DNA of 64,000 nucleotides from Bilabrum cf. latius. Lineage: Eukaryota. The DNA lies in assembly GCA_965178125.1 (NCBI GenBank), contig OZ237762.1, positions 620,001-684,000 on the forward strand, given 5' to 3'. This document shows, in pieces, positions 1-64,000 of the stretch (position 1 is its first letter; each line of letters begins with the position of its first letter). The translations under genes and the position numbers were made by a program. A model generated the notes under the pieces. The model searched no databases. It was not told where the DNA came from and was given only the letters and a program-made list of their open reading frames with translations.

Positions 1-3000
1 CTTGGGCGGTGGCAGCGCTTGCGGCTTCATCTTGTATCCCGCCGTCCATGCGGAAATCGTCATCCTGTGCACCTGGTGCCGGATTTCGTACCTAGTCCGG
101 TACTGGGACGTGTCGATCAATGCACACAGGGGCGTGTCGCTGCCGAAAATGCTCTAGAAGCGGGTGTGGGTAGACACCGAGCTGGGCATGGGGAACATGG
201 ACCTGCCCTGGACATACACCTCTGCTGTTTGCACGTTGAGCTCCATGCCTGACTTGCTGTCGCGGTAGAACCCTGCCGCCTCGCTTTCCTCTGCCTGCTG
301 CTCAAGGTTGCGCTTGCGGGCTTCGTCCATCTCGCGCATGTCGTCCAAGTTCGCCCCCAGCCACTTGCGGGCAGCGTCCTCGTCGTTGTTGCACTTGGCC
401 AGGGCGCGCTTGCACCACCTCAGCTGTGCCTTGGGCTTGCCGTCTTCTCCGGTGCCGAACGACTCAACCAGGACATTCGCAGTCTGCTCGGAGACTTCGG
501 CAGTCACCGTGCACTTGTATCCCCAGCGCTGTTGTGCGTTGATCTTGGTTACACGCAGCTGGTTGCGAGACCTGATTTCCGTCACAACGACCAAATGGTC
601 TGCCGGAATTACAAGAGGAGGGCTCCCGTTCATCCCGGGGAAATTCATTTCGCTTCCCCCAACGCCGTTGTATCCCTTACTGGAGCCCCATGTCTCATCC
701 AAGGTCTCATCCTTGTAGAACTTGATGAAATCATTCCAAGTGAGTGCTGAGCGGGAGTCGAACGAGATCGTGATGCTCTTTGCCCCCGGAAACCGAATCG
801 TTTCACATGAGGACGTGTTAAGCGCCACGGGGTGCTGCGACTCTAGCGTCCGTTCGCACACCATATCATCCTTCTGTGCGGGCCTCCACTTGCCAATGGC
901 CGTGGAATCCTGCCGCAGTGCAATGGCGGCGATAGAGGACAAGCAGGCCAGGCGCTCTGTCAACGGGGCCAGAGAGATGGCACGCATGGCGCTTTGCCTA
1001 GCGCGGAGCATCGCACTGAACACATCCTGCCCCGGAACTCGCAGTGTCTTTCCGTCGGACGTGTGCGCGTTCTCACTGGCTCCGCTGTGGCGCCACATTC
1101 TACCTCTGCGGCGCCCAAAACGGTCCTTGGGCACATCGCTCTGCGACAGCCATGACCGGACCAAAGCAGCCGAGCCCATGATGACTTTTGCATCCTCTAG
1201 GGTCATGTGCCCATCGCTGCTACTAACTCCGGCAGCAGCCTCGATCGCCAGCATGAGGTGGGCATGAAGCCGCAGCAGCGTCTCAATCTTGAGCCGCTCT
1301 TTCTCAGCCTTCTTGTTGTCTTCGTCATTGTTGTTGTTCTGCTTGTTCTCCTCTTCTTCTTCATCTTCCTCCTCCGCAACAGCCTTCTTCTTCTCTAGCT
1401 GTGCGAGCATCCCCTGTAGCTTTGCTCTCGCGGTGCCCTGCAGAAAGAGAGCCGCACGCTCCATGGCCCTCTTGCCAGCTTGCTGCGCGAGGGTCGATGT
1501 GAATGCACTGCACTGGTCCACATCTTTGAGGAACGAAAGCACCTTGCTGATGGCACCTGTCAGGAACAGGAACGTGGAGCTGAACCCACCAGTGGGTTGG
1601 TCCGTGCACATCCGCACTACCTCGTGCGCCATGGCCAGCAGCGGGTCAACCACCCCGCCAGGAGCCACCCTCAGCTCGTTCACCAGGAAGCTCTGCCTCG
1701 CGCCCAGCACATCACGCTCAACCGGGCCCTGCAGAGGAACACGCTCGATCAGCTCCAGCGAGGGAAGCTCCGGTTCATCTTCCGCCTTTTTCTTCTCAGC
1801 ATCGGCGCCACTTCCACCCTTGATCGTGGTCATCTTCGTCACGACAAGAGATCCGTCTTCTGCTTCCACGATATCGATGTCACCGTCCTCGTCATCATCA
1901 GCGTCACCCTCCTGAGGCCCTGCCTCTGCCTCTGCCTTCCTCTTTGCCTTCTCCTCGCGCCTCTGTCTGGCCGACACGTCTGCATCCACGGCATGGGCGA
2001 ACTTGAGAGCGCGATTTTTGCGCTCTTTCGCGGCATCAGAGTAGTGGTATGGCTCAAACAGCACCCGCTCCACCAGTCGCTGCACCTCAGGATGGGACAG
2101 TGCGCCCAGCCTGCCTCCCGCCAGGAACCGCAGCAGCATAGGGATCCGCATGTACTTCGCGCACAGGGACAGCAGGAGCCCTTCGGCGTCCTGAGGTGAG
2201 ACAGATCCATCGTAGTCGGGCAGGTTTACCGCACGCAGCACCATCTCTTCTGCTCCTTCGCCCCTGCCTGTCAGCTTGAAATCGTCGAGGCTGCCGTGGG
2301 TGGGATCAGCGCGGTAAAGGATAAAGCCAGGCTCAGTCAGCTTGTCGCGCAAGTCTGTGGGAGGGCGGCACGGCACGGAAGTGTCCATTGCATAGATGCG
2401 CAGGCACACGGGAGGGTGCATGTCCAAGCACGGGTTGCGGGTGTTGAAGTTGGGCTGCGCTCGCTGGGGGGTACGAGGTGTCTGCTGCAGGTACAGAGTA
2501 GTCGGATCGTATGCCGACCCCAGGTGCGAGATAACGGCTAGATCCTTTAGGTGGTCAAGCTCAGGGCATCCCCTGTTTGACCACCTCGTCGTCATGAAGA
2601 TCCGGAGCTTTTCCTTTTCGGACAGATCGGACGTTGACAGAGTTGCCAGAATCTCCGGTGGGATCACACCGTCATACGTCTATGATCTCTTCTCGTTGTG
2701 GACATCCGAGAGAGTTATCTCGGCGTCCTTGGTCGAAGCGAGAGCAGACAGGGTGGCACTCCAGCAGAGATGCTTGGGTCTCAGCATGTACTCCATCGTG
2801 ACCTTGTTGAAGCGCTTCAGAGGGTAGTGGAAGGCAAACCCGTGCGACTGCTCCTCCATGCCCCTAAAGTACTCCAGCACCAGCGGGCGCGCTGCCACCG
2901 CTGCAGGGGTGCTCATCAGCCCGTACTGCATGTGATAGCGGAAGGAACGAGTACCGCACGCATCCAACCGGATGTGGATCGCTGGCTCAATGGGCACCAA

Positions 3001-5569
3001 CCCGTAAAGACGGCCCCAGGTCTTGTGGTCGACGCCTCCACTCGAGGCAGCATCGTCTGCACCCGCGCCAGAGGATGCACCTGCTGCAGCACCTCCATCG
3101 GCATCGCCGGCAGATTTGCCCACCTGCCCCCCCGGGGTGATGTGCCTGGGTCCGTGGTTCAGCACAGTCGTCACGCCCAACGGACCGTCAGTGGCCTCAA
3201 TCCGTGCCACCCGCTCCCACAGCGCGTGCAGGGCAGCAACAGTGAGGTTGTAGTGGGAGCCATAGGATCTGTCGTACGCAACACCACGAGTCGCGCACAG
3301 GTAGGACTGCATGATCTGGTAGATATCACGCAGAACAGTCCGCTGCTGCGCCTTGGGCATGTGCGCGCAGTCGAACACGTCAGGCCTGTTCTTGAGGCTG
3401 CGGGCCGCGTCCCTGGATGCAGCTGCATCTCCGTGTGCAGCCACCACGTCCTAGGGCACAGCTTGCGGGTCCACTCCGGGCCGCAGTGGCCCGCCGTCAT
3501 CGGTGGACTTGACAAGGGGAGGTGCATCACCGGTGTCCTCGTCGTCCTGCTTGCCCTCTGCCGTCTTGCGTTCCGAGTCACCAGCACCCGAGGTCTCTCC
3601 CTCCTCCTTCTTCTTGTCGTCTTCGTCGTCATCTTCGCTGCCCGACAGCACCACCGGGGCTCGAGGGACCGGCACCCGCTCCAGGATCACCTCTTCGATG
3701 TAGGCGCGGAGCTGCATGAGGGGTGCGGCACCGCTGCCGCCAAAGGACCGAGTGATCATCTGCATGCAGCGCCCCTGGGTCTTCCCCAGCGCACGCCTGA
3801 TGTCATCGAATGCCTGCCGCTGAGCCTTCACGTAGTCCTCGGGGCTCAGCTCCTCGACGTCCTCCCGCGCCTCTGCTCCCACAAGCACGCGGCCCCAGCT
3901 GTCCCGCTTGGGCTTGCTGGGCTCGGTCAGGTCCAGGAACGGATCAGCGCTCGTGGCTGCCTCGCCGCCTGCGAACACGTCCGTGGAGCGCATGTCAGCC
4001 ACTGCGTCCCAGCCATGGAAGCCGCGCACCGGTTCCGCAGGGATAGACGCGCCCAGCCCCAGTTTGGGAGGGCCCAGCACCAGGGCCTGCCTCTCGCACA
4101 TGGCCACCACCTCGGGCCCAAGCTCAGAGGCCTCGTCAGGGGTAAGCCCCATGGCCCCCGTGTGGTCAAGCAAGGCTGTCCGGAACCGAATCTCCCGGAT
4201 CAGCTCCGATGTGTGACGAGTGCCCGCATCGTCCAGCAGCCCCGTGGTTCTCCTCTTGGCAGCGGCCCGCGCAGTCTGCCTGCAGGCGATGTCCAGGATA
4301 CGGACCTCCCAGGGCAGCAGCACGATCCTGCCCAGAGGGGCCTCCTCCTCGCTCGTCTTGCTCTCAGATGCGCCCGCGCCCGACGCGGCGCCGCTGCTTG
4401 CGGAACCAGCCGCCCCCTTGCCACCCTCCGACGTCGGCACGTCGGAGCTCTTGGGCGCCTCGATGCCCACTTCTGCCTCGAGCGCCTTGAGCTCCTCGTC
4501 CTGCTCGTCCTCGATCTCCTCCCAGTCCTTCTCCTCCACGTCGTCGTCCTCGTCCTTCTCTTCGTCCACTGCCGGGGCCTCGTCACCGACACCTGCACGC
4601 AGCTGACGCAGCGCCACACGAAGGTACTGCAGGCGGACGGCGAAGGTCACCTGCTTGATCTGGTCAGGCGTGAATGCCATCCGCTGCATCATGTAGCGCA
4701 GCGCGTGCAGCACGCACCTGTAGTAGCAGGACCCCGCCCGCTGCAGGGTCGCGAAGGGCCCGTGCTCGCCCGCAGCCTCGATCATCGCCTCCCGAAGGGT
4801 CGTTTTGCCCGCCAGGTGCGGGAGGAGCACCTCGTACAGGTCCTCTCTCGAGCTGTGATGTTGCACTGAGAACATCTTTCCGTATAGCATGTACCATACA
4901 CCGCGGTCGGAAATGCGTGACAGCGGGATGTTCTTCATCGCGATCGCTGTGCGAGCTTGTTCACTCTCGAGCGGCTGCTGCAGCCTGGTCATGGGGTGAT
5001 TTTGGACACCCGACCCAGTATTGATGACAGCAAAGAGGTACGAATCCTTCGCTTGCCGCTCGACGAGAAACATGATTGCGTGTCCTCCTGAACCTGACAT
5101 CCAGCCCGCGGGTAGAAGCAGCCTGTCTCCGACAGGAATCTCGGCACATTCGTCCGCAGCCCGCGCAGCCACACGCATAAGTACTTGTGCGTCTTTTACG
5201 CCTTTCTAAAGCTGCTCGTCGTAGCGGGCAGCCTGGATCATCTGGTCAGCGATCGACTTCATCTTGATAAGATCGCCGTCGGGAATACAACCTAAGTCTG
5301 AGCGGTTCGTCTCCACCAAACCGCGAACGATTCGCGACATTGTTCGTAGAGATGGAGCAATATGCCCACCTTCCCATCCAGTACCTGAATAATTCGAGGA
5401 GTTGGGCGGGGTATGTGGATGTAAGCATGTGTTCTCGGGGAGCGATGAAGGTCTCATTTGAGCGTTTCAAAGACTCACCGTCTGCATAAGGGTCCGCAAA
5501 CTGCCCCACAAATGCTGCAGAAGTCCAGATGCGCTCTTTAATACCGAAACGCAGCTTACGGCGTTCCAT
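1..5569 (-). CDS. Very large protein (3' end runs off the window) with an N-terminal putative cysteine-peptidase region and a UBA-like motif
   Basis: ATG at 5569 (MERRKLRFG...), then a GTGAGT...CAG intron at ~5478-5386. ORF pieces 5206-5457, 3451-5178, 2680-3447 and 154-2667 are all in one frame and separated only by TAG. Motifs: GGHAIMF...INTG...QRAGSCYY (H/N/Q-C peptidase-like) and WCKRALAKCNNDEDAARKWL (UBA-like). Confidence 0.7.
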
Positions 5570-5777: not shown

Positions 5778-8700
5778 TCACAACGGAGGCAGTTTCTTGC
5801 CTTTCCCCTGCCCACGGCCAGACTTCCTGGCAGAATCGCTTCCGGTCTATTCTGCAGCCCTACTACCAGCCGACGAGGCTGCCCCGGACGACCCAGAACC
5901 AGTACCAGCAGTGCCAGAGGCCCCACCCTCCAGGCCAGCCCCCCCCGGCACCTGCACGCCCGAGGACTTGAGCTATTCGCGCACAGAGTCAGGTATGACG
6001 TCCATGCCCCCCGCCCGTCCACGCCAGCCGGCCTCCCGGGCCAGTACGTCCACCGTTTGCGCGGCGCCGGCTGCAGCGGAGCCATCACCAGCACGCGCAG
6101 AACCGCCCGACTGCGACTGCCTGCCCTGCTGATGCTGATGCTGATGCTGATGACCTGGCGAGCCCCGGCTCCCGCTGCCGCGGCCCCCACGCGACCGGCC
6201 TCCGATGGGTCCCGTCCCCGCCCCTGAGCCAGAACCCGCGCGGCGCTGCGAGCCGCCCTGCGTTCTGGCTCCGGATCCACCCGCGCCGCTGGGCAGGGAG
6301 GGCAGCGAGGCCTGCGACTGCGAGTGGCCACCGGCACCACCGTGCGATGCACCTGCACCGCTGCCGCCACCCATGGCGCGGGGCATCGCCGAGGATCCTG
6401 CCGCCGTGCCGGCACCAGGGCCGGGCACGCCCTGTGGGGAACAGTCTCTAGTGTCCACCACGCACACGGTCGCAACGTCCGAAGGCCCGCCCCCGGCACC
6501 CGCACCATCGTTCGCTGCACCCAGTGCCTCGATCCTGCCCCCCGCGTGCACGTACACGTGCCTGACTCTCGCCGCCCGATCCAGCCCTTCCACGATGCTC
6601 CTCACACCCAGGGAGGAGAGCCTGTTCCCCCGCAGGTCGAGCAGGCCCAGGGAACATCCAGTGTCGCTCAGAAGCGCCGCAAACGCCCTCGCCCCATCGT
6701 CCCCGATCGAGTTGTTCCTCAGCCTCACCTCCCTCACGCTGTTCCCCGCCCCCCGCAGCGTGGCCGCCAGCGCGTGTGCCTCCTCGTCCCCCAGCCCGCT
6801 CTCGTCCAGCTGCAGGCTGGCCCCGACCCCACGGTTCCCGTCGATCTGTGACTCGGCGTCCGCCCTGGCCCTGGCCTCGTGCACGTACCTGATGAGCGTC
6901 CTCCTCCTGGCCTCCTCTTCCTCCGCTAGCCTGGAGTGCGTCTCCGTGGAGGCTCTCTGCGCCTCTGCCGCCCGACCCTCCGCCTCCCTCTGCCTCTGCT
7001 CCGCCAGCACAGCCCTCTTCTCGTTCACCAGCACGAGTCCCAGCAGAGCCGCCATCCGCTCGAGCACCCTGGGCTTGAAATGGGTGCCCTTCTGCGCTTT
7101 CTTGAGGAACACATTGATGCCCAGCCTGCGGAGGAGCTGCTTGGCCTCGTTTCTCGCAGCACGAATCATGATAAGGCCCTGGGTTGGCTTGGCATCGAGG
7201 TAGAACCGCCCCTTGCCTCCTTGCTTGAGCACCTCCTCGTCGCTCGGCTCGGCTCCCTGGGCCTTGGCGTCCTCTGCAGGTGGCGCGTCAGCGTCAGCCC
7301 CACCGTCGTCATCGTCCCCGGCACCATTCCCAGCGCCCGACCTGGCGCCGCCCCTCCCTCCCCGGGAACCGTCACCAGCCCCATCCCCAGCTCCCCCCCC
7401 CGCAGCATCCTAACCGCTGCCGCCTCTCCTCTGCCTGAGTCTGGCGCGGAGCACCTCCAGCTCCGATGTTGCCTCCTCCGCCTCCTTGGACTTCTCTCTG
7501 AGGGCCTGGGTCACCACCCGATTGCTCTCCGCCACCCGGGAGAGCTGCCCCGCCAGCTCCTCGTTCCTCTGGGCGGAGGCGCGGAGCTGCGCTTCGAGCT
7601 TCTTGACTTCCTCTCTCTGGGCGGCTCGCGCCTCCTCATCGGCCTGCATCTTGTTGAGCAGGAAGGCGAGTCGCCCGCTGAGCGTCCTAACTTTTTCCTG
7701 CGCGGTCTTCCTCTCGTCGTGCTCCTTCATCTTGGCCCTTACCTCCTCCTTGGAACGAGCTGCCAGCTGCCCGTTGTGCTGCTTGAGGGCCTACAGCCTC
7801 TCCTACAATGCCTTCAGGTCCATCTCCGCTTTGACCCGCAGCTGCCCCTCCTTGGCCGTCTCTTTCACCAGCCGTCCCGCCTTTTTCCGCATGGCCACCA
7901 GCTCGCCCTCCCTCGCCCTCACCGCCTCTACTGCCTTGGTCTTGCCCAGCTCAGCCAGCTTCAGCCGCTCCAGCAGCTAGAACACGCGCTGCGCCATCTC
8001 CCTGAGTTGTTCCCCGGCATCTCTCGCCTCTGCCTCGAGCCGCAGCCTCTCCCCCTCCGCCGTCTCGAGCCGCTTCGTGAGGAGAAGAGCCTGCTGCCTC
8101 ACGTTGCCTTCCTCGGTGATCAGCTTCTTGTTCGCGTCTTCCTAAGCTGCCTTGGACCTGCTCTCCACCTGCAGTTCCGTCTCCAGCTCTACGATTTTCG
8201 CCGCCATGGCCTTGACCCTCTCTTCCAGGGCACCCACGGCGTCATCTGCCTTGCGCTTGGAGTCCTCCGCCGACTGGGCCTTCTCTAGAAGCTGGTACTG
8301 CTTCTCTTTCCGCACCCTTAGCTGTTCCTACAGGCTCTCCAACTCTACCTGCGTTTTTCGCTTCATTTCCAGGTTGCTACTCCGCAGCTGCTCTGTCTCT
8401 GTCCGCAGCAGCCGAAGCTCCTCCGCCCGTAGCTTGGCTTCCTGTGCAGCCTGTCTTGCCAGCTCCTCCTGCCCTTTTGCCGTGTTTAGCAACGACCTGT
8501 GCTGGTCCCGGAGGGCCTGCAGCTCCTGCCTCATGGCTGTGTTCTCCGACTGCAGCTGGGACGTGCCTTTTTCCTCGCCTTCCAGCAGGCGGAGGAGCTC
8601 GGCGTTCTGGTCTGTCAGGATCTTCAGCTGCCTCTCCTTGTCGCCCGCCTCCTGCTGTGCCCTGCGGAGTGCGCCCGCCTCGCTCCTGAGCTTGGTCTAC

Positions 8701-11571: not shown

Positions 11572-14387
11572 ATGGCGCAACCAACTGGAGTTTTCATCGA
11601 CATAACGGGTTGGGGGCTCGCCAAGGAGCAGCGGGGACCTTTCGCGGTGAGCTGAGACCCGGTACTTCCCTTTGGCGCTTCGCTCCGCCCCGAGCATGGC
11701 GGATGGTCGAGATTCTGCTATGATCTACCTATCGAGCAAGCTGATGCTCTTGAAGCCGTTCGGTTGTGAATCTGGTGCATTTCTTTGCCGCATCGCCGGT
11801 TCATTGTTCGCAGGTTTTTGTCATACGCATCCGGCTGGGCAAGTATGCCTGGACGGTCTTTCGAAGGTACTCAGAATTTGCCCGACTTAACGCCCAGGTT
11901 AGTTTCGTATCTTGTCTATTTGCTGGCCTGGTTGACCGACGAATCCGGGCGCTGCTTGTGAATCGGGGCGGAGATTCGTCGCAAAGCCGGTCAGCTGTAC
12001 GATGCATCCATCGAGAGCGCCTCGTGCACTGCTTGCGTGTTACATCCAGTTTATTTGATGTCTAGTTTTCACAATGGGCCCATGCCTGCGGATTTCATGG
12101 TCCTCCTGGGCCCTGTGGAGGACGGGCCGGTCGATACGAGTCCTGCTCGAGATGCGTTGAGGCCGACCTCGCTGTGGTGGACGGAGTCGGACATAGCAAG
12201 CCACTTGGACCCTGCACCTGCTTTCATATATTATATTTTATTCTAAGCTTCCTTTGTGCTCTCTCGCAGCTCCAGGAGCAGATTTAGGGCGCTGCTCCGT
12301 GCCCGCCGAGAGGCCCGGGCGGCGTGGACCACGCCACGCTCGCAAACTTGCGTCTAGTGCTCTTAGAATGGATCAGAAGACTTGCAAACGACGAAAGAGT
12401 GTGCCGTTCCGCATCATTCCACGATTTCCTGCGAGCAAACGCGAACCGACCGCCGGCAGGAATGGGGAAGCCCGTCACCGTCCAAGCAAGCAGGCCGCCC
12501 GGGGCGCACCCGGCAGGAGGAGGAGCAGGTGGCGCCCCCGGGGGTCCCAGGCCATCGGGTCCTCACGGAAGCGGCGGGCCGGGGCACCCTGGAGGGCACG
12601 GCGGCCCGGCGGGAGGGGCTCCTCCCTCCCATTCCGCACGGGGTGGTGCCGGCCCCGGTCCCGGCCCGGGACATTATTCCGCCGGGGGTGCGGGGGGACC
12701 CGGAGCCAGGGCCTCCGGGCCCTCGAGCGGCGCTGCGCCCATGGACGGCCGTGGCGCGAGCGGCGGCCCCCCGGGGGGAAGGCCCTCCGGAGGCGGGTCA
12801 CCAGCGAAGAAATATGGCGCCGGCGGTGCCATCGGCCTGAGGGACTTTATGCTCCTCAAAGTGGTCGGAAAGGGATCCTTCGGGAAAGTCATGCAGGTGC
12901 GCAAGCGCAGCAACAACAGGATATACGCCATGAAAGTGCTGGATAAATCTTATGTCGTGGCAAGGAACCAGGTAGCGCACACGCAGACGGAACGGAGCGT
13001 GCTGGGCCAGGTGCGCCACCCATTCGTGGTCGGGCTCAAATACGCCTTCTAGACAGAAGACAAGCTGTATTTCGTCCTGGATTACTGCGCCGGCGGCGAG
13101 CTATTCTTCCATTTGTCCCAGGTGGGGAGGTTCGAGGAGCCCAGGGCCTGCTACTACTCGGCCCAGATCGTGCTCGCTCTCGAGCACCTGCACAGCAAGG
13201 GCATCATCTACAGGGACCTCAAGCCCGAAAACGTGCTTCTGGATCACCACGGAAACATCCGCATCACGGACTTCGGCCTGTCCAAAGAGAACGTCCATGA
13301 AACGGCCGAAGGGGCCCACTCGTTTTGCGGCACGCCAGAGTACTTGGCCCCGGAGATCCTCGATCGGTCGGGGCACGGCAGGGGGGTGGACTGGTGGTCG
13401 CTTGGTGCTCTCCTGTACGAGATGCTCACCGGATTGCCCCCGTTTTACTGCAAGGACAGGTCGGTCCTCTTCAAGCAGATCAGGACGGGGACCCTCGAGT
13501 TCCCGCCCTACCTGTCGAACGAGGCCAAGGACATCTTGTGCAGGCTGCTGTGCAGGGACCCGAGGAGGAGGCTGGGCTGCGGGCCCAGGGACGCGGAGGA
13601 CATCAAGGCGCACCCTTTCTTCAGGCGGATCAACTGGCCGGCCATGCTCGCGTGCAAGGTGCCCCCGCCGTGGAGGCCCAGGGTCACGCACTCCCTGGAC
13701 ACCTCGCAATTCGACTCCGAGTTTACAGACATGCCGGTGAGCGCGGACGACGCCCCCGGGGCGGGGAAGGCCCCCCTGAGCAGCAGCATGAAGTACAAGG
13801 CGGACCAGGCCTTCAGGGGCTTCACCTTCACGGGCGACCACGCGCTGGCGGGGAGGGGTGGCCCAGGCGCTGGGAGTGGTGGTCCCCCAGGGCGGGGAGG
13901 GGGTCCGGCACCGGGGGGTGCGGGGGGATCCGGGGGACCCCCCACGGTGGGGTCGTACGCCTCCAAGGCGTTCGGAGGGGGTGCCAAGGAGGTTGCGACC
14001 GGCGGGCCGGGCCCTGGCCCGAGTGGCGCGCCGGCGCACCACCCCTCTGCGATTGCGGGGGCGGGCCCCGTGGGGTTCGGAGGCCCCAGGCCGGGCCCTG
14101 GCCCATCGACGGCAGGGATGCCCCGACCGATGGGTCCTCAGGCTGGCTCTGGAGGTGCCGGTCCTGGTCCTGGCATGGGTGGAATGGGCACGGGCACGGG
14201 CATGGGGAGGGGTAGTGGTGGTGGTGCCCCCATGATGGGGGGCCATGGGCCAGGGGTAGGCATGCCGGCGGGGCATGCGATGGGTGGGCCGGCCATGGGC
14301 GGCATGAGCGGGGGAGGGCCGGGCGGGGGCGGGCGCATGGTTGCGATGGGCAGCGCGGGGTCTTCCGGGCAGGTGGAGATGGACTGA
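11572..14387 (+). CDS. PX-domain AGC Ser/Thr kinase (SGK/PKB-like), 3 exons
   Basis: Exons ~11572-11646, ~11814-11897 and ~12270-14387 with GT-AG introns. PX motif WTVFRRYSEF. Kinase motifs GKGSFGKV, YAF(TAG)[31 protein letters not shown], and hydrophobic motif FRGFTF. Confidence 0.93.
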
Positions 14388-17521: not shown

Positions 17522-17753
<232 letters not shown>

Positions 17754-51631: not shown

Positions 51632-51687
51632 TTTACTATAGACGTTTATAATTATGGGGTGGGTTTGATTACTTTTCTAAAGTATAA

Positions 51688-52179: not shown

Positions 52180-52244
52180 TTTATAGTATATCCACAGAAA
52201 TAATTTTTATCAGGTTGCCAAAAGATGTAAATAAGAGGTTTTGG

Positions 52245-53426: not shown

Positions 53427-53491
53427 TTACTATAAGCTTTTATAAAAAGCTTGACCAAAAAATAAAAAATAAAGTGTTTGTGTATAGTATA

Positions 53492-53728: not shown

Positions 53729-53757
53729 AGAAACTTTTATAACAAGTTTGACCAAAA

Positions 53758-54660: not shown

Positions 54661-54850
54661 TTTAGTGTATTTACTATATGTTTTTATATTTTCTAAAGTG
54701 TTTTGTCTTTTTGTTGAAAACTTATTTTGAATGATTGTCTTTTATGCTATCCACAAATTCCAAAACGGATTTTGTAGAAATACTTCTACGCATAAATAAT
54801 GGTTAAGAGATGTTTTTATCTCCCCCAATATATATGTATATAATAAATAT

Positions 54851-55387: not shown

Positions 55388-55666
55388 ACTCCAAAGGTAA
55401 AAATGTGAGAAGAACTTTGGGGTTCTTGGTTTTACTTCGATACCGTGTCGTTTGAAGTATCTAAATTGGCGGTCCGTATCTAAATGATTTAAATGGCTGT
55501 AATACCCTATTCTATCGTAAAATTGCTAATACCGCCTATCACCAAACGATGTAATATATTCATCATTTTCGTCAAAAACATCATACTTCTTATTCTTGCG
55601 TCTTGAGGGTGCTTTAAATAGAAAATTCTCAACAACCTTTTCAAAATCGTAGGTATGTAGCTTCAT
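55382..55666 (-). CDS. Small conserved viral protein (DUF5754-like; 94 aa)
   Basis: Pattern KNKKYDV...SFGDRRY(TAG)QFYD...RYFKRH...PKFFSHFYLW, as seen in virophage, PLV and giant-virus small proteins. Family assignment is from recall. Confidence 0.7.
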
Positions 55667-55697
55667 AAGTACTTTATAGTATAGTCTTCTACTTATA

Positions 55698-55811
55698 TCA
55701 AAGCCCGAGCTTCTTGTATTCCTTTAGTTTTTCGTGTAATTTTTTCCAAATACGTGGATTAATTTGCTTGACAATATGCTCTATCATCAACTCCTTTAAA
55801 AATGGGTTCAT
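55698..55811 (-). CDS. Virophage micro-ORF (37 aa)
   Basis: Preceded by the CTATAGTAA-ATG motif shared with the other viral genes. Confidence 0.45.
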   Translation of the reverse strand: MNPFLKELMIEHIVKQINPRIWKKLHEKLKEYKKLGL

Positions 55812-55959
55812 TTACTATAGTGATATAGAATGGCTTAAATTATCATCTCTTGGGAAATCCAATCTTTGAAAAAGATATCAAAACAGCGGAGGGCAAAGCC
55901 CGAGCATCTTGGAAAATTAATTTTAATATTTCTTTGTATCCTATATTGTCAAAATTTTT

Positions 55960-57020
55960 CAATCAATTTTTGTGTTTTTAATTGGAAAACAATTATAATT
56001 TGTTTTTTATTTTCCTTTTAATTTTTATGGTGGCATCATAGGAATTACAACATTTAATTTTAATCTTTGAAAAAGATATCAAAAGAGCGGAGGGCAAAGC
56101 CCGAGCATCTTGGGAACTTAATTTATTTTTTCTAAGTCTCTTATAATTGACCTGTAAAATTGACAAGTTTTTTGGGGACTTTTCGAAAGGGACTTAAAAT
56201 ACGTTTTCGTTTTCCTTTTAATTTTTATGGTGGCATCATAGGAATTACAACATTTAATTTTAATTGGAAAATATATTTATTCTTTCTAAGTCTCTTAAAA
56301 TTGACCTGTAAAATCTCTCAATTTTAATCTTTGAAAAAGATATCAAAAGAGCGGAGGGCAAAGCCCGAGCATCTTGGGGGACTTTTCCAAAGGGACTTAA
56401 AATACGTTTTCGTTTTCCTTATAATGTATCATCTCTTGGGTAATCGGTTTGGTTGCTTCGGAGAACAATTTAGTCGCTTGGGAAATCCTTGGGAAATCCT
56501 TGGGAAATCCTTGGGAAATCCTTGGGAAATCCTTGGGAAATCCTTGGGAAATCCTTGGTCGGTTCATCGGTCGGTTCATCGGTCGGTCGCTTGGGAACAT
56601 ACCTCGGTCTCTTGATAAAATACCTTGTTCTCTTGGGGAAATCCTCGGTTGGTCTCTTGGTCTCTTGGGAATTCATCCTTCCGTTCCTACAGCAAACACA
56701 GAGATATTTTGGACACTTGGTTAATTTCTTCATTTTTTCCTACTTTACTAAAACATCTCTGTCTTTGCTGTTAGAGTTTATAAGGGGGTTAAATATTAGA
56801 ATTCTTCAATTTACCCCTACTTCGTAGGAGTAAATTTTATATCTGAAAATGGGTACATAGAGGGGTTCTATAGGGGTTCTTGGGGAACCCCCTGTGAAAT
56901 CATTTAGGTTTATAGGGGAAACACTTGAGTTGCTAAATATGCCTTTAAAGGAGGGGCGAGCGTAGCGTAGCCCTCGTCCTCAACGCTTGGTGTACCTACC
57001 ACCACCTGTTGTCCCCCCCC
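55960..57020 (-). repeat. Right terminal inverted repeat of the provirophage
   Basis: Ends CCTACCACCACCTGTTGTCCCCCCCC. Has the 11-mer x7 and an extra ~50 bp module at ~56065-56113. Confidence 0.95.
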
Positions 57021-58222
57021 GGGGACGACGGTTCACCGGAAAGGGGGAGGAAGTAGTGGAGGAGAAGATGATTGGTGGGGTCATCGGTTTGATGCGGCGG
57101 ATCGGAAGGGGGAGGCACAGGCCGGGCAGGTGGGGGTTTGGGCATGTGTGTGACGAGTGACTCGGATCAGGGGGATCGGATCACCCGACCACATGCGGAT
57201 GTGGACTCGAGCGGCAATCAAGCCGCGTGCTATTCGGGCGCTAAGGGGCAGCGCTCGCCATTTTTTCTTAATTAACCTCTTGCTCTTCTATGGATTCAAG
57301 TAAGGCATCGTAGAAGCGCACAGAGCGCGCTGAGCGTCGGGCGGCATCAAAGAGCCGGTCCAATTCTGTATCATCTGGCGGGATGCGGGCGGCCGCCGCT
57401 GCGTCCCCGGCGCCGCAGGCCGGCCCATCTATTGTTCCTGCTGCTAGTCATGGCCCGAGACCGGCGGTAGGTGCAATGCAGCCCGCGATGCGGCCGTGTC
57501 CAAGACCGGTGAGTGGACGGCGCCCGCTGGATGCGGAAGTGGCGGCTGCTGCCAGAGCTCGCCTCGCGGTTACGTGTGATCTCACGGGGGATAAGGCCAC
57601 ACCCCTGCTCTTGAGGAAGGATCGTAACATACTCTGGTCGCCAAAGCCAGCTAGGATAGCTGTGGCCCTCAGGCCTTTCGGAAGTGCGTTTGATTCTTTG
57701 TTGGGGTCCGCCTTGTCCGACACTGGTTGCCACCCCTCCTGGTGGATTCGGACGAACTCCTCCTTCGGGAGGTGGAGAGATTTTTCCATCGGGGGCCGGT
57801 GTCCAGTTTGTAACGCGCGCACGATAGCCTGAATAGGCAGCTTGCGGTACTCATCAGGGTACCGGCATATGCGCCGCTTTGTTCCAGGGGTCGCGAAACC
57901 CAGTCTTTACAGGTTGTGCTGGAGCTCCGGGTTACAGGCTGCCTGTAACAGGCCACCCCCCCCCCCCCCCCCCCGGGGTCTCGAGCCGGCTCGAGGGTCA
58001 CGTTTCCGATTCGTAGTCGAGACACTCTGCGTTTCCGAGTAGTCTTTACAGCAGGTTTCGAGGCTGGTTTTTCCGTCTGGTTGGTAGATTTTGGCTGCTC
58101 CTTCGGCTTCCTGCCGTACTGAGATCACACGTTGTACAGCACCCTAATCTCGCAGACAGTCACACATGGTTGCAGTTGGTTTCCTCCGAGAGCCCATTCT
58201 CAAAGTTACCAAAAAGAAATAC

Positions 58223-58763
58223 TGGCGAGCGCTGCCCCTCAGCGCCCGAATAGCACGCGGCTTGATTGCCGCTCGAGTCTAATTGTGACCTCTCAACTTC
58301 CACATCCGCATGTGGTCGGGTGATCCGACCCCCCTGATCCGAGTCACTCGTCACACACATGCCCAAACCCCCACCTGCCCGGCCTGTGCCTCCCCCTTCC
58401 AGTCCGCCGCATCAACCCGATGACCCCACCACTCATCTTCTCCTCCACTACTTCCTCCCCACTTGGTGAACCGCCGCCCCCTCCTCCCTGCTTTGCTCCC
58501 CGGGCCATCCCTCGCCCTCTCCCTCTGCTCCGCACCCCCCCCCCACCCCCACCCCTCGCTCTCTCTCTCTGCTCCGCACCCCCCCCCACCCCAGTTTCCA
58601 TCCCTCGCCCACCCCGCGTCGCCGCCCCTCCTGGTCTGTATCTCTAGCCTATATTTCTCTCTCTCTCCTCCGTATCGCTACGTCGCATCTGCCCCTGCAC
58701 CTCGAGTGGGTCCCGCGCCCACCGTGCGACCTCAATCTCAGAGACCTTGCTGGCCTCACCAAC
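58223..58763 (-). repeat. Uninterrupted paralog of the host repeat that the virophage split (39468-39694 + 57021-57260)
   Basis: Its reverse complement matches both virophage flanks colinearly across the junction. Confidence 0.88.
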
Positions 58764-58806
58764 GGAGACTGCGACGGGTGTGACTCTGCCTGCGATCGAT
58801 CGAAGC

Positions 58807-59847
58807 TTACTCGTCGGTTATCTCTTGCAATCGTGCGGATACTTCCACTTCTGAGCGTAGGGACTCCACATATCCCTTCAGGCGTGACTTGTCTGCCTCT
58901 AGGTCTTGTATACGGCGCTCCAGGTGGCTCCTCTGGGACTAAGACTCTTCCGTCGTCTGTGTCGCTTGCCTCCGGGCCTCGCTGGGGTGCTTGAGGTCAG
59001 ATTGAAGTTCAGAGATCTTAGCAGTCTAGCTTGCTACTTCGTCCAAAGCATTTGATAGCTTGGCTTGAAGGCTGGCTACATCGTTCTTCTTGTTCCAAAG
59101 ATCAGCCTGCAGATCTCGGAGCCTCGATTCCAGGGACCTGCTCTGTTCCTGGGACTTCTTTTCGATTGATTCGAGAGTCGCAGCTGCATCAGCACGGGTC
59201 TTCTGCAGTGTCTCTGTAAGCTGGTGGTTTGCGGCAGACAGTGAGTGGATCGCCTCAGCCTGCACCGCTGATCGTTCGTCGAGGAAAAGTCGCAGTCGTT
59301 GAGTTTCGCCATTTGCCTTATCCAGTGCCTTCTGGAAGCCCATTTTCTGTTGCTCAAAGTTTCCCGAAATTCGGCGCAGCTCTTTCTTCGCCTCCTTGAG
59401 GTCGTCCGCCGCCCTCTGGAGGTATGCCAGTTTGTTGTGCAGCGCAAGAATCTCGGCGTTTTGGGAGTTGCCCAGCTTTCTCCTGTCCTCTAGTTCTTGT
59501 CTCATTCTGTCTCTCTCGACTGTGGTTCCCTCCAAGGTGGTACTTTTCATCTGCAGGATGTTCGTGAGTCGAGCCACTTTATGCTTCTGATCACTCAGGC
59601 ACTCGTGATCGAGTGATTGTAGGTAGCTTAAGTGAGCAACACAAAGAATACTTGCGAATGCTACCAATAACGCGACATCAAAGGCACTAAGTGGTGTGAA
59701 CCATGATCCACGACGGGCTCGACCCGTGGAGTCCGCGTCCTCGTACCACTGGTCGTTTTGAGCATCTACACCCTAGAGGGTTGTAGTAATGATGATAGAC
59801 AGCATAATCAGCCATGGTAGCGGCTTGGGCCAATTGCGCGGAGCCAT
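58807..59847 (-). CDS. Signal/TM-anchored coiled-coil protein
   Basis: Starts MAPRNWPKPLPWLIMLSIII. One frame through TAGs to TAA 58807. Confidence 0.65.
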
Positions 59848-60297
59848 ATAGCCCTTGACTGTCCAAGAAAGGTAGGAAAGGAAAGGATGATGAAGATAAG
59901 CAGTTGCGCGAATCCGGATTGCGTTTTGCGCTTTGGTCGCTGCTTTAGCCCTAGGTTAGGCGTGGTGTAGAGCATAGCAATAGTGCAATAACCCAGCCGC
60001 TGCCACGCCGTTGGCAGCGAGATGCTCCGGTTCGCGAACCATTTGCATGACTAGACTCTGCAACGGTCCGGGGGACCGCACTATTAATGCTGGTTCTTAT
60101 GTTGGCGCTGCTGACGTCGACAGCGTCAGTGGATGCATTGGAAATGATTGAAACGCTCATGCACGTTTGTCGCGCCTTGATACTCCAGCGTGTTACGAAA
60201 CCGATGCGCCACATGAACTGAGACGAACGTTCTCGAGGTTCGCTAAAAAAAATCTGCTGACGGCAACTGTGGCGTGTCACACTCACAACAATCCATT

Positions 60298-62361
60298 ATG
60301 CTGACAGCAATTGCTTTGATTTTGGGTGCAAGCCAGGTATATGGAGGTGCAGTAACTGTTGCCCATACTTCGTTCGGAGCACCAGGTGTAGATGTGCTCG
60401 TGGATGGCGCCAAGGTGAGACGTGCGGTGAATCGCTACCGTGCGAGGGTTTTATTGGGCACGGACAGCTTGATAGAGTACGTGCCGAGCAGCTTGTTCAT
60501 AAAATGGCTTCTTTCCCCGTGCAAAACTGGACGCGGTTTGTTTGTGTCCAATGCCTGTCACGTGGAGGCTCTAATTATGTGACGGGCGGTCACGTAGCGC
60601 GGTGACGTGCGCGGTCAATCTGCGCGAATTTTCGCCTAATAGCTTCACCAATCAGGTTCCACGACAATGAATGGCAATAACATACATCGCAGGTTGCTAC
60701 CAATCTGGAGTTTGGCCACACTGCCACGATTGATGCCCCAGGAGGGCTCTACGAGGTCGAGCTGCAGGCGGGCGGCGCCACGGTCCTCAAGCGCAAGCTG
60801 AACGTCTTCTCCTCGGTGCCTGGGATCGACATCGGACAGACCATCTACGCAGTTAATCCTCTGGAGGGGCTCACGCTGAGCACCTTGGAGCACGACGTGC
60901 CGCGCACTACCGATGACCACATTGTCGTGAGAATATGCAACATTCCTTGGCTTGGCTCGCAACACAGCCAGGTTGACTACCTACCTATTAGACTTTTGTT
61001 TCCTTGGACTAGTATGCGGTGTACCATGATGTCGCGATGCCGCTCAGATCGAGAGCGTCGCATTCCCCGCATCGTGGCGCTGATGGCGGCCGTGACACGT
61101 CACCCGGTTCATTCCCCGCATCATGGCAGCCGTGGCACGTCACGATCCAAGGTTCGTAGCTCAAAAACTCTCCCAGCATTATTTTTAATTATTACAAATT
61201 TGTTCGCAGTTCAGGTACCACCACCTAGTGGCAGATGCCCCTGCCGTGACGGTCATCACCACCAACGACGAGGGCAGGCAGGTGTGCATCGACGCCACAC
61301 TCGAGTACGGTGACGCGACCTCGGTCTACTGCTTCGTGGACCGCAGGGAGCGCGAGATTAACGTGGCAGTGACCCTCCCCGGAGACGCCGGCGAGGTGCT
61401 CTTCAAGGCCACTCTCAAGCCGGCTGAGATCCCCGCGGGGACGTACGGCGTGTCGGTGATCGGCAGCGCGGCAGCCAAGCAGCTCGGCGCGGCGATCATC
61501 CCGCTCTCCGGCGCCAAGGCATCCCTCAACCTCACCGAGGCCATCCAGCAGCAGCGGAACCTAGGCACGTTGCGCGGCGCCGCCGCCGCCGCCCCTCAGC
61601 AGGCCAAGGTGCTCCCCATGGCACTCGCCGACTCCGTGCCCTCGACTGAGGGCTTCCCCGCCATGCAGAACGTGGAGGCCGCCACCGTGCCAATCCGCGT
61701 GGTGCACGGGTGCGCCGATGCCCCCGCCGTCAACGTGCTCGTGGATGGGGCCAAGGTGGCCACTCTCAAGTACCTGCAGTACACCCCCTACGTCCCCGTG
61801 GGTGCGGGCAACCACAAGGTGCAGCTGCAGCTGGAGTCGGGCACCGTGGTGCTCGAACGGCCCCTGTACGTGTCTCCTCCTTCCACCCGCGCCGCCCCCG
61901 AGTCGTTCAGGACCGTGGTGGCCGTCGGCAGTGCACTGTTCGGGACCCTCGACCTCGCGGTCTACAACGACGGGGAGTTCCCCCCTGAGGAGGTGCTCTA
62001 CCGCCAGGCCAACCTGTTCGAGAGCGACCTGCCCAACGTGATCCACCTGGACAACGCCGCCATCCAGGAGGAGTTCCCCCTGTACTTCACCCGCGCCACC
62101 AACCACTTCATCAAGTCCATCCCGTTCCGTGCGGTGTTCGGAACCGTGGACCAGCTTGAGAGGGACGGCGGGCGCCGGTTCATCGGGGCTGGAGCCCTCA
62201 ACGGGACTGAGGTGACCGGCCTGTATACTGCATGGGCACTCGGCATTGGGGAGCGCGCTGAGCTCGCCATCCTGCCCGATGCCACTACCGCGCAGGCTGC
62301 CTCGGTCGTGCCGGTCGAAGGCCTGGCCGCCATCGATGCCGTCGTTTCGAAATCGGAGTGA
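60298..62361 (+). CDS. Secreted protein with repeated DUF4397-like domains, 3 exons
   Basis: Signal peptide, then the repeats VAHTSFGAPGVDVLVDG, YHHLVADAPAVTV and VVHGCADAPAVNVLVDG. GT-AG introns at ~60415-60692 and ~60926-61209. Confidence 0.8.
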
Positions 62362-63254
62362 TTTTCGCGGCTCACTAGCAGGGGCAAGGTGACCACAGAC
62401 TTACGCTGAGGCGTGGGAATTGTTGTCCGCCCGTGCTCTTGATTTCTTCGTGAATTGAACGCTGCCTAGGAGTTGCAGATGCACCTCCAAGCAGTCCTAG
62501 ACGACAAATCAGGAACACTCTTTACGCATAAGATAAGCAATTTTACAACGTGCCGTGCAACCGTTCAATGTGGAGACTGTATCTTGGAGACAGTAGTATC
62601 CTTAGACCTGTGCCACGTTCACGGGGATGCGAAGCCCATTCTTCTGTACAGTTAGTGGTCACGGTCTAGTTTGTGTGCACGCGCACGGCATACAACCTTT
62701 TCGCACAAACTCCATGAATGACTCTTACCATTTTGGGTGAACGGGCTGTATTTGATGATCGCATTGCGATCATCCCGAACCGAAGCTTCGCGAAGGCACC
62801 AGCACTGCCACTGGTCGGTCGCTCGCGGAAACTGGCGCAAATTGTCAATTTCACTCGACAACAATCGCATTGAATTGCCTGTAAGTTACAATATGCAACC
62901 AATGAAAGGAGGCCCACGATGTGGTGGTGGGCTTGGGGCTGGGGGAGCGACGTCTCCGGCGGAGATCCGGGAAGGATCGGCGCATCAACAAGCAGCGCAG
63001 GGTACGACACCAGTAAGTGATGGACTGGGGGTGCATATTTCTACAAGAACATATTAAGGGCTTGGTCATTTCGCCGATCCAAGGCTACACTGTGCGTGGG
63101 GCCTGTCGTCATATGGCAGTTTCGCTTCCGCACAGCCTGACTGAAGCCGCATCTCTCGCGAAAACCGAAGTCTAAGTCATCAATCATGCTATTATACATA
63201 TACATTATTACATCGCAGGTTCATTATATGTTGCTGACGGACAACTACGCCGCA

Positions 63255-64000
63255 ATGGCTGCCACGGGCTACCAACCAGCCACAATTGACGCGAGGGCGC
63301 TCCGGCGCGGCCCGTCACCATTAGCCAGCGCTGGCGGGCGGCAGGCAGTCAAATCCTCGAATACAACCCATACCGTGCATCTCAAAAGCAGGGGCTGCAA
63401 TCGTCTCCAGGGGGCTGGAATCCAACTTGCGACCATTGGCAGCGGCTCCGGTCGCAAAGCCGCGACGATGGCTCGCGATGCTTGCAGCGAGGCATGCCTG
63501 CCTCACCCAGAGTCGCAGGCGGGACAAATCTGCGCCAGAGCAGACACATCTAAATCCGATTCGCGTGTTCCGGGCGCGCACACAAGCAGGCTGCGCGAAC
63601 TGGGAAGGCTGGCAGCAGCCGAAGCAGCTAGTGGCACGGCACCGGCAGGCCAGCGCACGACCGCCCCACCTGCAGCGCAGGGCGCGTCGATGCCACCGGC
63701 GGCGAGCAGCTCAGCGGCATCAAGGTGCTTGGACCAGGTATCCTCGGTGGTCTCCCGAAGTTCTGCCGCCAGGGAACACCAAGCTACAAGCCCGAGCCCG
63801 AGCCCGAGCCCGAGCCCAAGCGTCTGCAAAAGCTCGGGCCGTGGCCGGACCCTGCGGCGCAAGGCACAGTCCAAGAAGACCACGCATTTCCAGCGCTGGC
63901 TTCAGCTCGAAGACGAGCAGAACCAGCGCAAGAAATCGGAGCTTATGCTGCAGCTGCAGTAGCTCCAGCGGCAGTCTCACACTACGGCCAGGTACTCGGC
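63255..64000 (+). CDS. Hypothetical low-complexity protein, truncated by the window end
   Basis: Long ORF whose apparent stop at 63960 is a TAG in a Gln-rich context. The start is uncertain. Confidence 0.4.

Follow-up and report, generated by a model that had tools for sequence, protein, structure and literature searches.

Evidence that UAG is read as glutamine, with UAA and UGA as stops, in GC-rich protist nuclear DNA and its integrated virophage

Host genes and an integrated virophage

We analyzed a 64-kb stretch of GC-rich protist nuclear DNA, which is called the window here. Host open reading frames (ORFs) were read through every TAG and were delimited by TAA and TGA. The host features were as follows.

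1 to 5466, minus strand: host ORF of 1822 codons, running off the window start; 4 TAG, 0 TAA and 0 TGA in frame
5778 to 9194, minus strand: host coiled-coil and LRR ORF of 1138 codons; 9 in-frame TAG; TGA end
11754 to 14387, plus strand: host PX and AGC kinase gene (Pkinase 1e-72, Pkinase_C 1e-08); TGA end
13050 to 13052, plus strand: in-frame TAG in the kinase catalytic domain; Gln in 120 of 120 homologues
19692 to 25214, plus strand: host ORF of 1840 codons with a long Ala-Gly repeat; 8 in-frame TAG; TGA end
25312 to 25419, plus strand: exon 1 of a DeSI/PPPDE gene (Peptidase_C97 4.9e-08); TAG at 25330-25332
27519 to 29240, plus strand: host FkbM-like methyltransferase ORF; 9 in-frame TAG; TGA end
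29424 to 33677, minus strand: host 7tm_3-like membrane protein ORF of 1417 codons; 8 in-frame TAG; TGA end
35183 to 39436, plus strand: host ORF of 1417 codons; 16 in-frame TAG, 10 of them in codons 1137-1308; TGA end
58807 to 59955, minus strand: host coiled-coil ORF; 3 in-frame TAG; TAA end at 58807-58809

The kinase domain and tail of the AGC kinase gene were located at 12846-14387, and the upstream part of the open frame (11754..14387) probably contains introns. The closest homologues of this protein were PX-AGC kinases, and its named best matches were all stramenopiles. These matches point to a protist host that is probably a stramenopile, a placement made from one kinase. Later exons of the DeSI gene were found near 25640-25860 and within 25846-27423. 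Pfam gave no family for the ORF at 1..5466 (minus strand). For the host proteins at 1-5340 and 29424-33500 (both minus strand) we obtained no homologues at E ≤ 1e-3 at the lengths searched, and these proteins are not callable as orphans.

Between the host genes lies an intact integrated mavirus-like virophage, with the following features.

39695 to 57019, no strand assigned: integrated virophage of ~17.3 kb, AT-rich (GC 0.35-0.40), with inverted ends and virophage genes
40972 to 42120, plus strand: virophage rve integrase with chromodomain (rve 3.3e-09, Chromo 7e-06); 6 TAG; TGA end
42121 to 43839, plus strand: virophage primase-helicase-like gene (DUF5906, 6.5e-15); 10 TAG; TGA end
43879 to 45738, plus strand: virophage protein-primed-type family B DNA polymerase; 5 TAG; TGA end
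46716 to 47972, minus strand: virophage ORF of 418 codons; 11 TAG; TAA end
48671 to 50455, minus strand: virophage major capsid protein; 14 TAG; TGA end; 60% identity to L001
50516 to 51781, minus strand: virophage penton (minor capsid) protein; 16 TAG; TGA end; 53% identity to L001
53758 to 54741, minus strand: virophage P-loop packaging-type ATPase; 9 TAG; TAA end at 53758-53760
54800 to 55387, plus strand: virophage ORF of 195 codons; 5 TAG; 55% identity to L001

L001 is a metagenomic relative of the element. The terminal inverted repeats of the virophage (39695-40698 and 55960-57019) were ~1 kb long and near-perfect, and their arms were 100% complementary over 425 nt. An upstream motif, TATAGTA, was also observed in the virophage. 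We found an integration module of the mavirus type, with the rve integrase and the inverted ends, and with a polymerase whose match to DNA_pol_B_2 (1.6e-04) was under the curated cut-off; this polymerase was 37% identical to an L001 ORF over 616 aa. The major capsid protein matched Sputnik_MCP_1st (PF21915, 3.6e-21) and MCP_V20_C (PF22031, 1.2e-25), both over their cut-offs, and had 2244 homologues at E ≤ 1e-3. The penton protein matched V18-19 (PF21507) at 8.8e-08, with 31.8 bits against a cut-off of 27. The ATPase matched AAA_22 (1e-05) with 26.3 bits against a cut-off of 27, and no specific FtsK/HerA family was matched in Pfam; its alignment with L001 (58% identity) reached the last residue of both proteins. 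The ORF at 54800-55387 may encode a cysteine protease. Pfam gave no significant family for it and no protease match in any remaining virophage ORF.

Reading frames and terminators

The original prediction had stated that TAG is the only stop triplet found in frame in long host genes. Our counts agreed with this statement, as ten host ORFs (10,016 codons) contained 58 TAG, 0 TAA and 0 TGA in frame, and TAG was present in eight of the ten. It had also been stated that no internal TAA occurs. We observed none in frame in either host or virophage ORFs; for the host this observation is partly circular, because TAA and TGA had been used to set the limits of the ORFs. Further, we compared the three frames in seven long ORFs of the host, with 8,719 codons in total. 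In the coding frame there were 0 TAA, 55 TAG and 0 TGA, while the corresponding numbers were 24, 61 and 142 in one off-frame and 23, 52 and 172 in the other. Therefore TAG is equally common in and out of frame, whereas the coding frame admits neither TAA nor TGA. Among the nine host ORFs that terminate inside the window, eight ended in TGA and one in TAA. The latter end, at 58807, had been predicted as a host terminator. The second predicted TAA or TGA end, at 53758, belongs to the virophage ATPase gene and not to the host.

When TAG was freed, six plausible ORFs of 877-1840 codons were obtained, with 0.22-1.13 TAG per 100 codons, together with two shadow frames. A naive ORF test favours TGA instead, as 59 ORFs of at least 300 aa (27,068 aa) were found with TGA freed versus 36 (22,169 aa) with TAG freed. 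The greater length with TGA freed results from GC-richness. Only two TGA-freed ORFs of at least 700 codons contained TGA, and both were overlapping shadow frames with 1.85-2.06 TGA per 100 codons. We also tried counting the stops that separate neighbouring long standard ORFs (flanks of 100+ aa, positions 1-40900), which gave TGA 17, TAG 18 and TAA 4. This test was dropped in favour of the frame-specific counts, since shadow ORFs in GC-rich DNA confound it.

The TAG-rich virophage, which had not been used in the earlier reading, is the strongest evidence in the window. Its 11 ORFs (4,375 codons) contained 107 TAG, 110 CAA and 43 CAG, with 0 TAA and 0 TGA, and the share of TAG among the virophage Gln codons was ~41%. 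The Pfam domains of the capsid, penton, integrase and helicase continued across TAG codons. The ORFs ended in TGA (9 of 11) or TAA (2 of 11). In L001, ORFs of 150+ aa amounted to 1,052 aa under the standard code versus 4,635 aa with TAG as sense. Judged from these frames, L001 is recoded in the same way as the integrated virophage, and the code is common to the virophage and its free-standing metagenomic relatives.

A code in which UAA and UAG both encode Gln (the ciliate and hexamitid code, table 6) could be masked if UAA were merely rare through the GC-richness of the host. The host indeed prefers G-ending Gln codons (CAG 328, CAA 79), so that few in-frame TAA would be expected anyway. However, the AT-rich virophage has a CAA:CAG ratio of 110:43, from which ~270 TAA would be expected, and we observed 0 against 107 TAG. 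The host itself had 23-24 TAA in each off-frame and 0 in the coding frame. Further, TAA ended two virophage genes and seven of the eight paired L001 genes, at homologous C-termini. In five pairs (ATPase, 48001-48723, penton, 54800-55384 and pPolB) the alignment came within 3 residues of both C-termini; the L001 genes were all TAA-ended, while those of the window ended in TGA in four cases and in TAA for the ATPase. TAA is therefore a working terminator in both the window and L001, and we regard table 6 as very unlikely.

UAG could also be ambiguous, encoding Gln inside genes and acting as a context-dependent stop for some of them, as in Condylostoma or karyorelict ciliates. As our ORFs were built, no TAG could end one, and the first of the 10 TAG in the last 280 codons of the ORF at 35183-39436 could be a real stop. 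However, this TAG-dense tail contained no TAA and only the terminal TGA in frame, against 5 TGA in each of the two other frames. All complete ORFs (9 of 9 in the host, 11 of 11 in the virophage) ended in TGA or TAA, and the C-termini of the virophage proteins matched those of their L001 homologues at such ends. Nothing in the window requires an ambiguous UAG, and we consider it unlikely. Both the host and the virophage use TAG as a sense codon in their genes; TAA and TGA never occur in frame there, and both serve as terminators.

The residue read at UAG

Two TAG triplets had been predicted to stand where Gln is expected, and both were present at their positions (13050-13052 and 25330-25332). 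The expectation was correct for the kinase, where we found Gln in 120 of 120 homologues and where the TAG aligned with Gln of S6K1 in structures. It failed for DeSI. The TAG at 25330 aligned with Lys of human DESI-1, and Lys was present in both of the only solved homologues (2wp7, 3ebq); on this alignment the site is not a Gln-conserved one and is uninformative on the residue. Six-frame Pfam scans of 14400-19300, 55600-60500 and 60400-64000 revealed no further conserved host TAG site; their only new matches were a kinase fragment that is a duplicate and, in an ORF free of TAG, a DUF4397 domain. The identity of the residue in the host itself is given by one conserved site, that of the kinase.

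For the virophage, we compared the codons of the window with those of L001 in 10 protein pairs (2,871 standard columns). There were 12 TAG-TAG sites and 92 sites at which TAG was opposed to a standard codon. Gln was the commonest partner of TAG (22 sites), with Lys at 10, Thr at 9 and Arg at 9, and CAA/CAG was paired with TAG about as frequently as the reverse. Gln also had the best likelihood; relative to it, the log-likelihoods were -37.2 for Glu, -41.8 for Lys, -65.5 for Ser, -138.6 for Leu and -171.9 for Tyr. In the control of this method 49 of 50 codons were assigned correctly. Distant capsid homologues (150 sequences, 24-31% identity), a set too divergent to decide the residue alone, gave a weak signal, with Gln in 223 of 1,901 pooled residues at TAG sites, 2.4 times the background, compared with 2.1 times for Asp and 2.0 times for Glu.

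A sense UAG could still stand for another residue, e.g. Glu, Lys, Leu, Ser or Tyr. Variable sites with other residues would fit this, among them Lys in DeSI and Tyr in 97 of 148 homologues at the TAG of capsid position 275. Against it stand the gap of at least 37 likelihood units for every alternative, the controls of the method (49 of 50 correct) and the kinase column, in which Gln was found in 120 of 120 sequences, and we give it very little credence. TAG behaves like a Gln codon.

The same credence, and no more, is given to a standard code in which the TAGs are lost before translation through in-frame introns or U-to-C editing, although a change of UAG to CAG would likewise yield Gln. There is no room for introns around the TAGs in the uninterrupted conserved domains of the kinase and of the capsid (14 sites), and the free metagenomic virophage shows the same TAG usage. 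Editing would have to act at 162 sites in 64 kb (55 in the host and 107 in the virophage) with TAG as the only target. To our knowledge, TAG-only editing at such a scale is unprecedented for nuclear genes.

Pseudogenes, or errors of assembly at the TAGs, are extremely unlikely explanations. Assembly artefacts are reported to account for many of the stop codons seen in endogenous viral elements (Bellas et al. 2023, PMC10120064), but here only one of the three stop codon types is ever in frame, the 425-nt arms of the inverted ends match with 100% complementarity, and the TAG pattern recurs in L001, an independent contig from a metagenome, with which 12 TAG sites are shared.

We conclude that UAG very probably encodes Gln in the cytoplasmic translation of this GC-rich protist nuclear DNA, with UGA and UAA as stops, and that the intact virophage uses the same code. 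The code is of the NCBI table 15 type (UAG = Gln; UAA/UGA = stop). As far as 64 kb can show, it is supported; this length is too small to exclude a rare sense UAA or an occasional UAG stop. The support comes from the kinase site (120 of 120 Gln) and the frame statistics, and independently from the virophage and its relative L001. The UAG-only Gln code of the original prediction thus stands on the frame counts, the kinase column and the virophage, while its DeSI example gave no support for Gln. By analogy with other UAG-only lineages, the host would possess a CUA-anticodon tRNA-Gln, and its eRF1 would have lost recognition of UAG. Translation of the virophage, and of any giant virus on which it depends, would then rely on the UAG-reading machinery of the host. 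Rfam and ARAGORN detected no tRNA or Rfam RNA genes in the 64-kb window, and no tRNA was found in L001 or L002; the eRF1 gene does not lie in the window.

Known UAG codes and recoded viruses

This kind of code is already known from Iotanema and some ciliates. In Iotanema spirale (Fornicata) the nuclear UAG encodes Gln, UAA and UGA are stops and UAA is the main terminator, as described from transcriptomic data (Panek et al. 2017, PMC5304391). The codon table is identical to the one found here, with UAG alone reassigned to Gln and uncoupled from UAA. However, the host is unrelated, and UAA is primary there versus UGA here (8 of 9 host ORFs, 9 of 11 virophage ORFs). The evidence for Iotanema is transcriptomic, whereas the present case is known from genomic sequence only. 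McGowan et al. 2024 (PMC11687900) describe UAG = Gln alone in two phyllopharyngean ciliate lineages and in Protocruzia tuzeti, UAG = Leu in an uncultured rhizarian and UAG = Ser in Scotinosphaera, and propose for UAG-only lineages a route through a tRNA whose CUA anticodon leaves UAA unread. The UAG-only ciliates share with our case a sense UAG and a UAA kept as stop, but UAA ends 86.9-98.3% of their genes (PMC11687900), while here long intron-containing genes in GC-rich DNA mostly end in TGA. We found no UAG reassignment in stramenopiles in the open-access literature, where supplementary code tables may exist.

The virophage resembles mavirus and the endogenous mavirus-like elements of Cafeteria, with which it shares an rve integrase, a protein-primed-type polymerase, virophage capsid genes, long inverted ends and a low GC content inside a GC-rich, stramenopile-like genome. 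Those elements and their host are reportedly annotated with the standard nuclear code, whereas here TAG = Gln is required by 11 of the 11 counted ORFs. The only non-standard code mentioned in the available portion of Hackl et al. 2020 (PMC6972860) is mitochondrial UGA = Trp. In Streblomastix strix, the capsid genes of endogenous polinton-like viruses use the TAA/TAG = Gln code of their host (Bellas et al. 2023, PMC10120064). These are likewise integrated small DNA viruses written in the non-standard code of the host, but both UAA and UAG are reassigned there, in polinton-like elements whose capsid is of the metamonad type. Our element is a virophage in which UAG alone is reassigned; its capsid and penton domains are of the Sputnik type, and it has recoded free relatives.

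The GVMAGs V2 catalogue of 2026 (PMC13524828) contains giant-virus metagenome genomes whose genes are called best under an alternative code, code 15 among them; it states that every isolated giant virus comes from a standard-code host, and that no recoded host is known for any isolate. The genes of these genomes, similarly to those of our virophage, are open only when one stop codon is reassigned. Those giant viruses have no known hosts, whereas here the recoded cell is seen directly, together with a virophage and with no giant-virus sequence. The crAss-like phages use code 15 as well (PMC9523058), with TAG = Gln in the virus as here, but they are bacterial and their code is unlike that of the host, while here virus and host agree. 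In the open-access literature (supplementary code tables may exist) we found no recoded virophages, and a scan of viral contigs with the capsid protein and the capsid alignment gave no relative. The closest database capsids were fragments of 133-270 aa, two of which stopped precisely where a TAG stands.

Changes of code in which UAG is uncoupled from UAA are rare and known from only a handful of lineages (McGowan et al. 2024, PMC11687900). Each independent UAG-only case tests whether the coupling of UAG and UAA is a real mechanistic constraint. The present one would add to the UAG-only set a GC-rich, TGA-terminating, non-ciliate genome, the opposite of the known UAG-only ciliates. It is also a natural experiment, in which the code has been taken up by an intact virophage as well as by its free relatives, with heavy use of TAG. 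Virophages depend on giant viruses, so there should be one that can express its genes in the UAG = Gln code. Standard-code gene calling shatters TAG-containing genes, and as the closest database capsids are fragmentary, two of them ending at TAG, such hosts and viruses are being missed or mis-annotated.

In summary, these results may represent the first nuclear stop-codon reassignment in a stramenopile-like protist and the first direct view of a cell able to host the TAG = Gln eukaryotic viruses so far seen only in metagenomes, a reading that we offer tentatively. One UAG = Gln code would then serve the host, the integrated virophage and the free virophage clade, made up of L001, L002 and the capsid fragments from databases, and by extension a giant virus as well. 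The code could be a marker, perhaps even a barrier, that ties these viruses to their host lineage.

Stop codons in the host reading frames

We analyzed the base composition of the window and observed a GC content of 0.53-0.66 at 1-40000 and 56000-64000, and of 0.35-0.40 at 40001-56000. Reading through TAG opened six long host frames that look plausible:

1-5466 (-), 1822 codons
5778-9194 (-), 1138 codons
11754-14387 (+), 877 codons
19692-25214 (+), 1840 codons
29424-33677 (-), 1417 codons
35183-39436 (+), 1417 codons

Ten host ORFs with 10,016 codons in all held 58 in-frame TAG codons, present in eight of the ORFs, and no TAA or TGA. Nine host ORFs closed within the window, eight with TGA and one with TAA (58807). 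The original prediction had stated that genes end in TGA or TAA and that TAA is absent internally. Both statements held, the second also for 4,375 virophage codons; its other example of a host gene end, 53758, was misattributed and belongs to a virophage P-loop ATPase gene.

We compared the coding frame of seven host ORFs (8,719 codons) with the two off-frames of the same ORFs. TAA, TAG and TGA occurred 0, 55 and 0 times in the coding frame, and 24, 61 and 142 or 23, 52 and 172 times in the off-frames. Host TAG is equally frequent in and out of frame, and TAA and TGA are wholly barred from the coding frame. Off-frame rates predicted approximately 157 TGA and 23 TAA, and judging from these counts their absence is far beyond chance.

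Comparison of ORF lengths ran counter to this result. Across the window, ORFs of at least 300 aa numbered 59 (27,068 aa in total) when TGA was freed, 36 (22,169 aa) when TAG was freed and 22 (10,050 aa) under the standard code. The total was largest with TGA freed because the DNA is GC-rich. At 1-40000, freeing TGA gave four ORFs of at least 700 codons; two carried 1.85-2.06 TGA per 100 codons and overlapped real genes in other frames, and the other two contained few or no TGA. Freeing TAG gave eight such ORFs with 0-1.13 TAG per 100 codons. A test of which stop divides adjacent long ORFs was dropped, as it was likewise confounded by GC-richness.

Three host ORFs had further features. The ORF at 61189-62361 (+), of 390 codons, contained no TAG and encoded a DUF4397 domain (1.2e-14). 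In 19692-25214, a dinucleotide-type repeat at about 21700-22200 encoded approximately 150 alternating Ala/Gly residues in frame. In 35183-39436, 10 TAG fell within 172 codons (1137-1308; 38591-39104), about ten times the density of other host ORFs, with no in-frame TAA or TGA and five TGA in each of the other frames. This end could be a Gln-rich tail or a different exon, or the first TAG could terminate the gene.

A virophage written in the host's code

The AT-rich island (39695-57019) is a virophage written in the host's code, and it is densely coding once TAG is read through. Its recognizable genes were:

40972-42120 (+): rve integrase with a chromodomain
42121-43839 (+): DUF5906 helicase
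43879-45738 (+): family B polymerase, match below the Pfam cut-off
48671-50455 (-): capsid protein, both Sputnik/V20 capsid domains (3.6e-21 and 1.2e-25)
50516-51781 (-): penton protein, V18/19 (8.8e-08)
53758-54741 (-): P-loop ATPase

No maturation protease was found by Pfam among the virophage ORFs. Inverted repeats at 39695-40698 and 55960-57019 bound the element; their 425-nt arms show 100% complementarity. Given this gene set and these repeats, it is an intact, mavirus-like and probably recent integration. The 11 virophage ORFs contained 107 TAG, 110 CAA and 43 CAG, and neither TAA nor TGA in frame.

The inverted ends also carried tandem 11-nt repeats (unit CCAAGGATTTC; 40168-40227 and 56477-56558) and larger internal repeats. 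The heptamer TATAGTA occurred 16 times in the window, always inside the virophage (40742-55819); whole-window shuffles gave an expectation of 2.1 and a maximum of 6, which sets the expected number too low for the AT-rich part. Half of the 12 virophage ORFs (helicase, 46054-46695, 47998-48723, penton, 52245-53426 and ATPase) had a copy no more than about 20 nt ahead of their first in-frame ATG, and near-variants preceded others. TATAGTA is probably a virophage promoter motif, and possibly also that of the giant virus on which the virophage depends.

A search of 1.84 billion representatives gave 2,244 capsid homologues at E≤1e-3; no relative was found in IMG/VR. The five closest were fragments of 133-270 aa with 56-70% identity. 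Two of them stopped directly before the TAG at capsid residue 384, the expected effect of standard-code calling on a recoded gene. A metagenome scan yielded two related contigs, L001 (15.1 kb, with a GC content of 0.30-0.45 along its whole length) and L002 (1.3 kb). L001 was syntenic with the window virophage (identities: capsid 60%, penton 53%, ATPase 58%, polymerase 37%), and its ORFs of at least 150 aa totalled 1,052 aa when read in the standard code versus 4,635 aa with TAG as sense. The relatives use the same code. Two small ORFs, 55385-55723 (-) and 47998-48618 (-), shared 64% and 55% identity with L001 ORFs; one had a borderline DUF5754 match (4.9e-06; 26.9 bits, cut-off 27.4), and the other a P-loop and no significant family match.

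The residue at TAG and the remaining terminators

The original prediction had placed Gln at two host TAG triplets, 13050-13052 in a PX and AGC kinase gene and 25330-25332 in a DeSI (PPPDE) gene, and both triplets were found there. The Pkinase domain (1e-72) ran unbroken through the first, which aligned with Gln of human S6K1 and with Gln in all 120 best database homologues (MAFFT). Comparable conservation was seen at only two of nine ordinary CAG/CAA positions of the gene (120/120 and 108/120 Gln). Removal of TAGs by splicing is excluded for sites inside conserved domains, and their change by RNA editing is very unlikely. The DeSI site did not bear out the expectation: exon 1 (25312-25419) matched two solved PPPDE structures, both with Lys opposite TAG. 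Six-frame Pfam scans of three more regions gave no further conserved host TAG site, so direct host evidence for Gln comes from one invariant site. Database searches with two long host proteins, over the lengths searched, found no homologues.

Partial duplicates of the kinase gene lay at about 15300-15900 and 17567-17716, one being a Pkinase fragment (6.3e-12) that runs straight into a copy of the final residues of the gene. Copies of the Gly-rich 3' end and of the downstream sequence also recurred, and the stretch before the next gene was repeat-rich and apparently non-coding.

We then compared window and L001 proteins (10 pairs, 2,871 standard columns, 53% identity). TAG was shared at 12 sites and one-sided at 92, where the partners were Gln 22, Lys 10, Thr 9, Arg 9, Ser 8, Asp 7, Glu 6 and others. 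With substitution frequencies drawn from the same alignments, the log-likelihood was best for Gln (differences from Gln: Glu -37.2, Lys -41.8, Ser -65.5, Leu -138.6, Tyr -171.9). A blind control on ordinary codons with at least 40 observations was correct for 49 of 50, ATG being miscalled as Leu. TAG stood opposite CAA (17/152) and CAG (8/48) nearly as often as Gln codons did (33 and 9). In distant capsid homologues, 14 pooled TAG columns gave a weak residue signal, with Gln commonest (223/1,901, 2.4 times background) and Asp, Glu and Tyr at 2.1, 2.0 and 1.9 times.

Gln as the meaning of TAA as well is very unlikely: A-ending Gln codons are preferred in the virophage 2.6:1, so that approximately 270 in-frame TAA would then be expected there, and none was seen. 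Five window-L001 pairs (ATPase, 48001-48723, penton, 54800-55384 and polymerase) aligned to within three residues of both C-termini; L001 ended in TAA in all five, and the window in TGA in four and TAA in one (ATPase). In this virophage clade, UAA thus works as a terminator. Evidence for UAA as a host stop is thinner, namely one TAA-ended ORF and the contrast of 0 with 23-24 between frames. The AT-rich virophage favoured TGA ends (9/11, TAA 2/11) as the GC-rich host did, and seven of eight L001 ORFs paired with window genes and closing inside the locus ended in TAA. Terminator choice seems to follow the host and not the element's own base composition.

The host and its code

All 22 kinase matches naming an organism were oomycetes or ochrophytes (59-68% identity), both stramenopile groups; unnamed matches reached 69%, and several shared the PX and kinase architecture. 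The host is probably a stramenopile, which is a lead from the database matches of one gene. The DeSI gene has three exons in different frames; this spliceosomal-type structure and the chromodomain integrase are more in keeping with a nuclear chromosome than with a GC-rich giant virus. The 64-kb window contained no tRNA genes and no Rfam families at gathering score. By analogy with other UAG-only lineages (Panek 2017, PMC5304391; McGowan 2024, PMC11687900), a tRNA-Gln with anticodon CUA, without wobble onto UAA, would be a likely route, alongside an eRF1 likely to have lost UAG recognition.

According to McGowan 2024, UAG is read as Gln and UAA kept as a stop in Iotanema spirale, Protocruzia tuzeti and two lineages of phyllopharyngean ciliates, whereas a rhizarian reads UAG as Leu and Scotinosphaera reads it as Ser. 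Endogenous polinton-like elements of Streblomastix are described as following the host's code, as the window virophage does, but there both UAA and UAG are reassigned (PMC10120064). One virophage clade is described as carrying an ochre-suppressor tRNA (Paez-Espino 2019). A 2026 catalogue (PMC13524828) describes giant-virus MAGs open under alternative codes only, code 15 among them, and states that none of the giant-virus isolates comes from a recoded host. Searches of the main text of open-access papers turned up no report of a stramenopile with a reassigned nuclear stop codon, nor of a virophage in which TAG is recoded.

In summary, the original prediction of UAG = Gln with UAA and UGA as stops was right, and it is more strongly supported than was then apparent because the virophage uses the same code. 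This type of code was already known; what this case adds is that a cell and its virophage are seen using it together.
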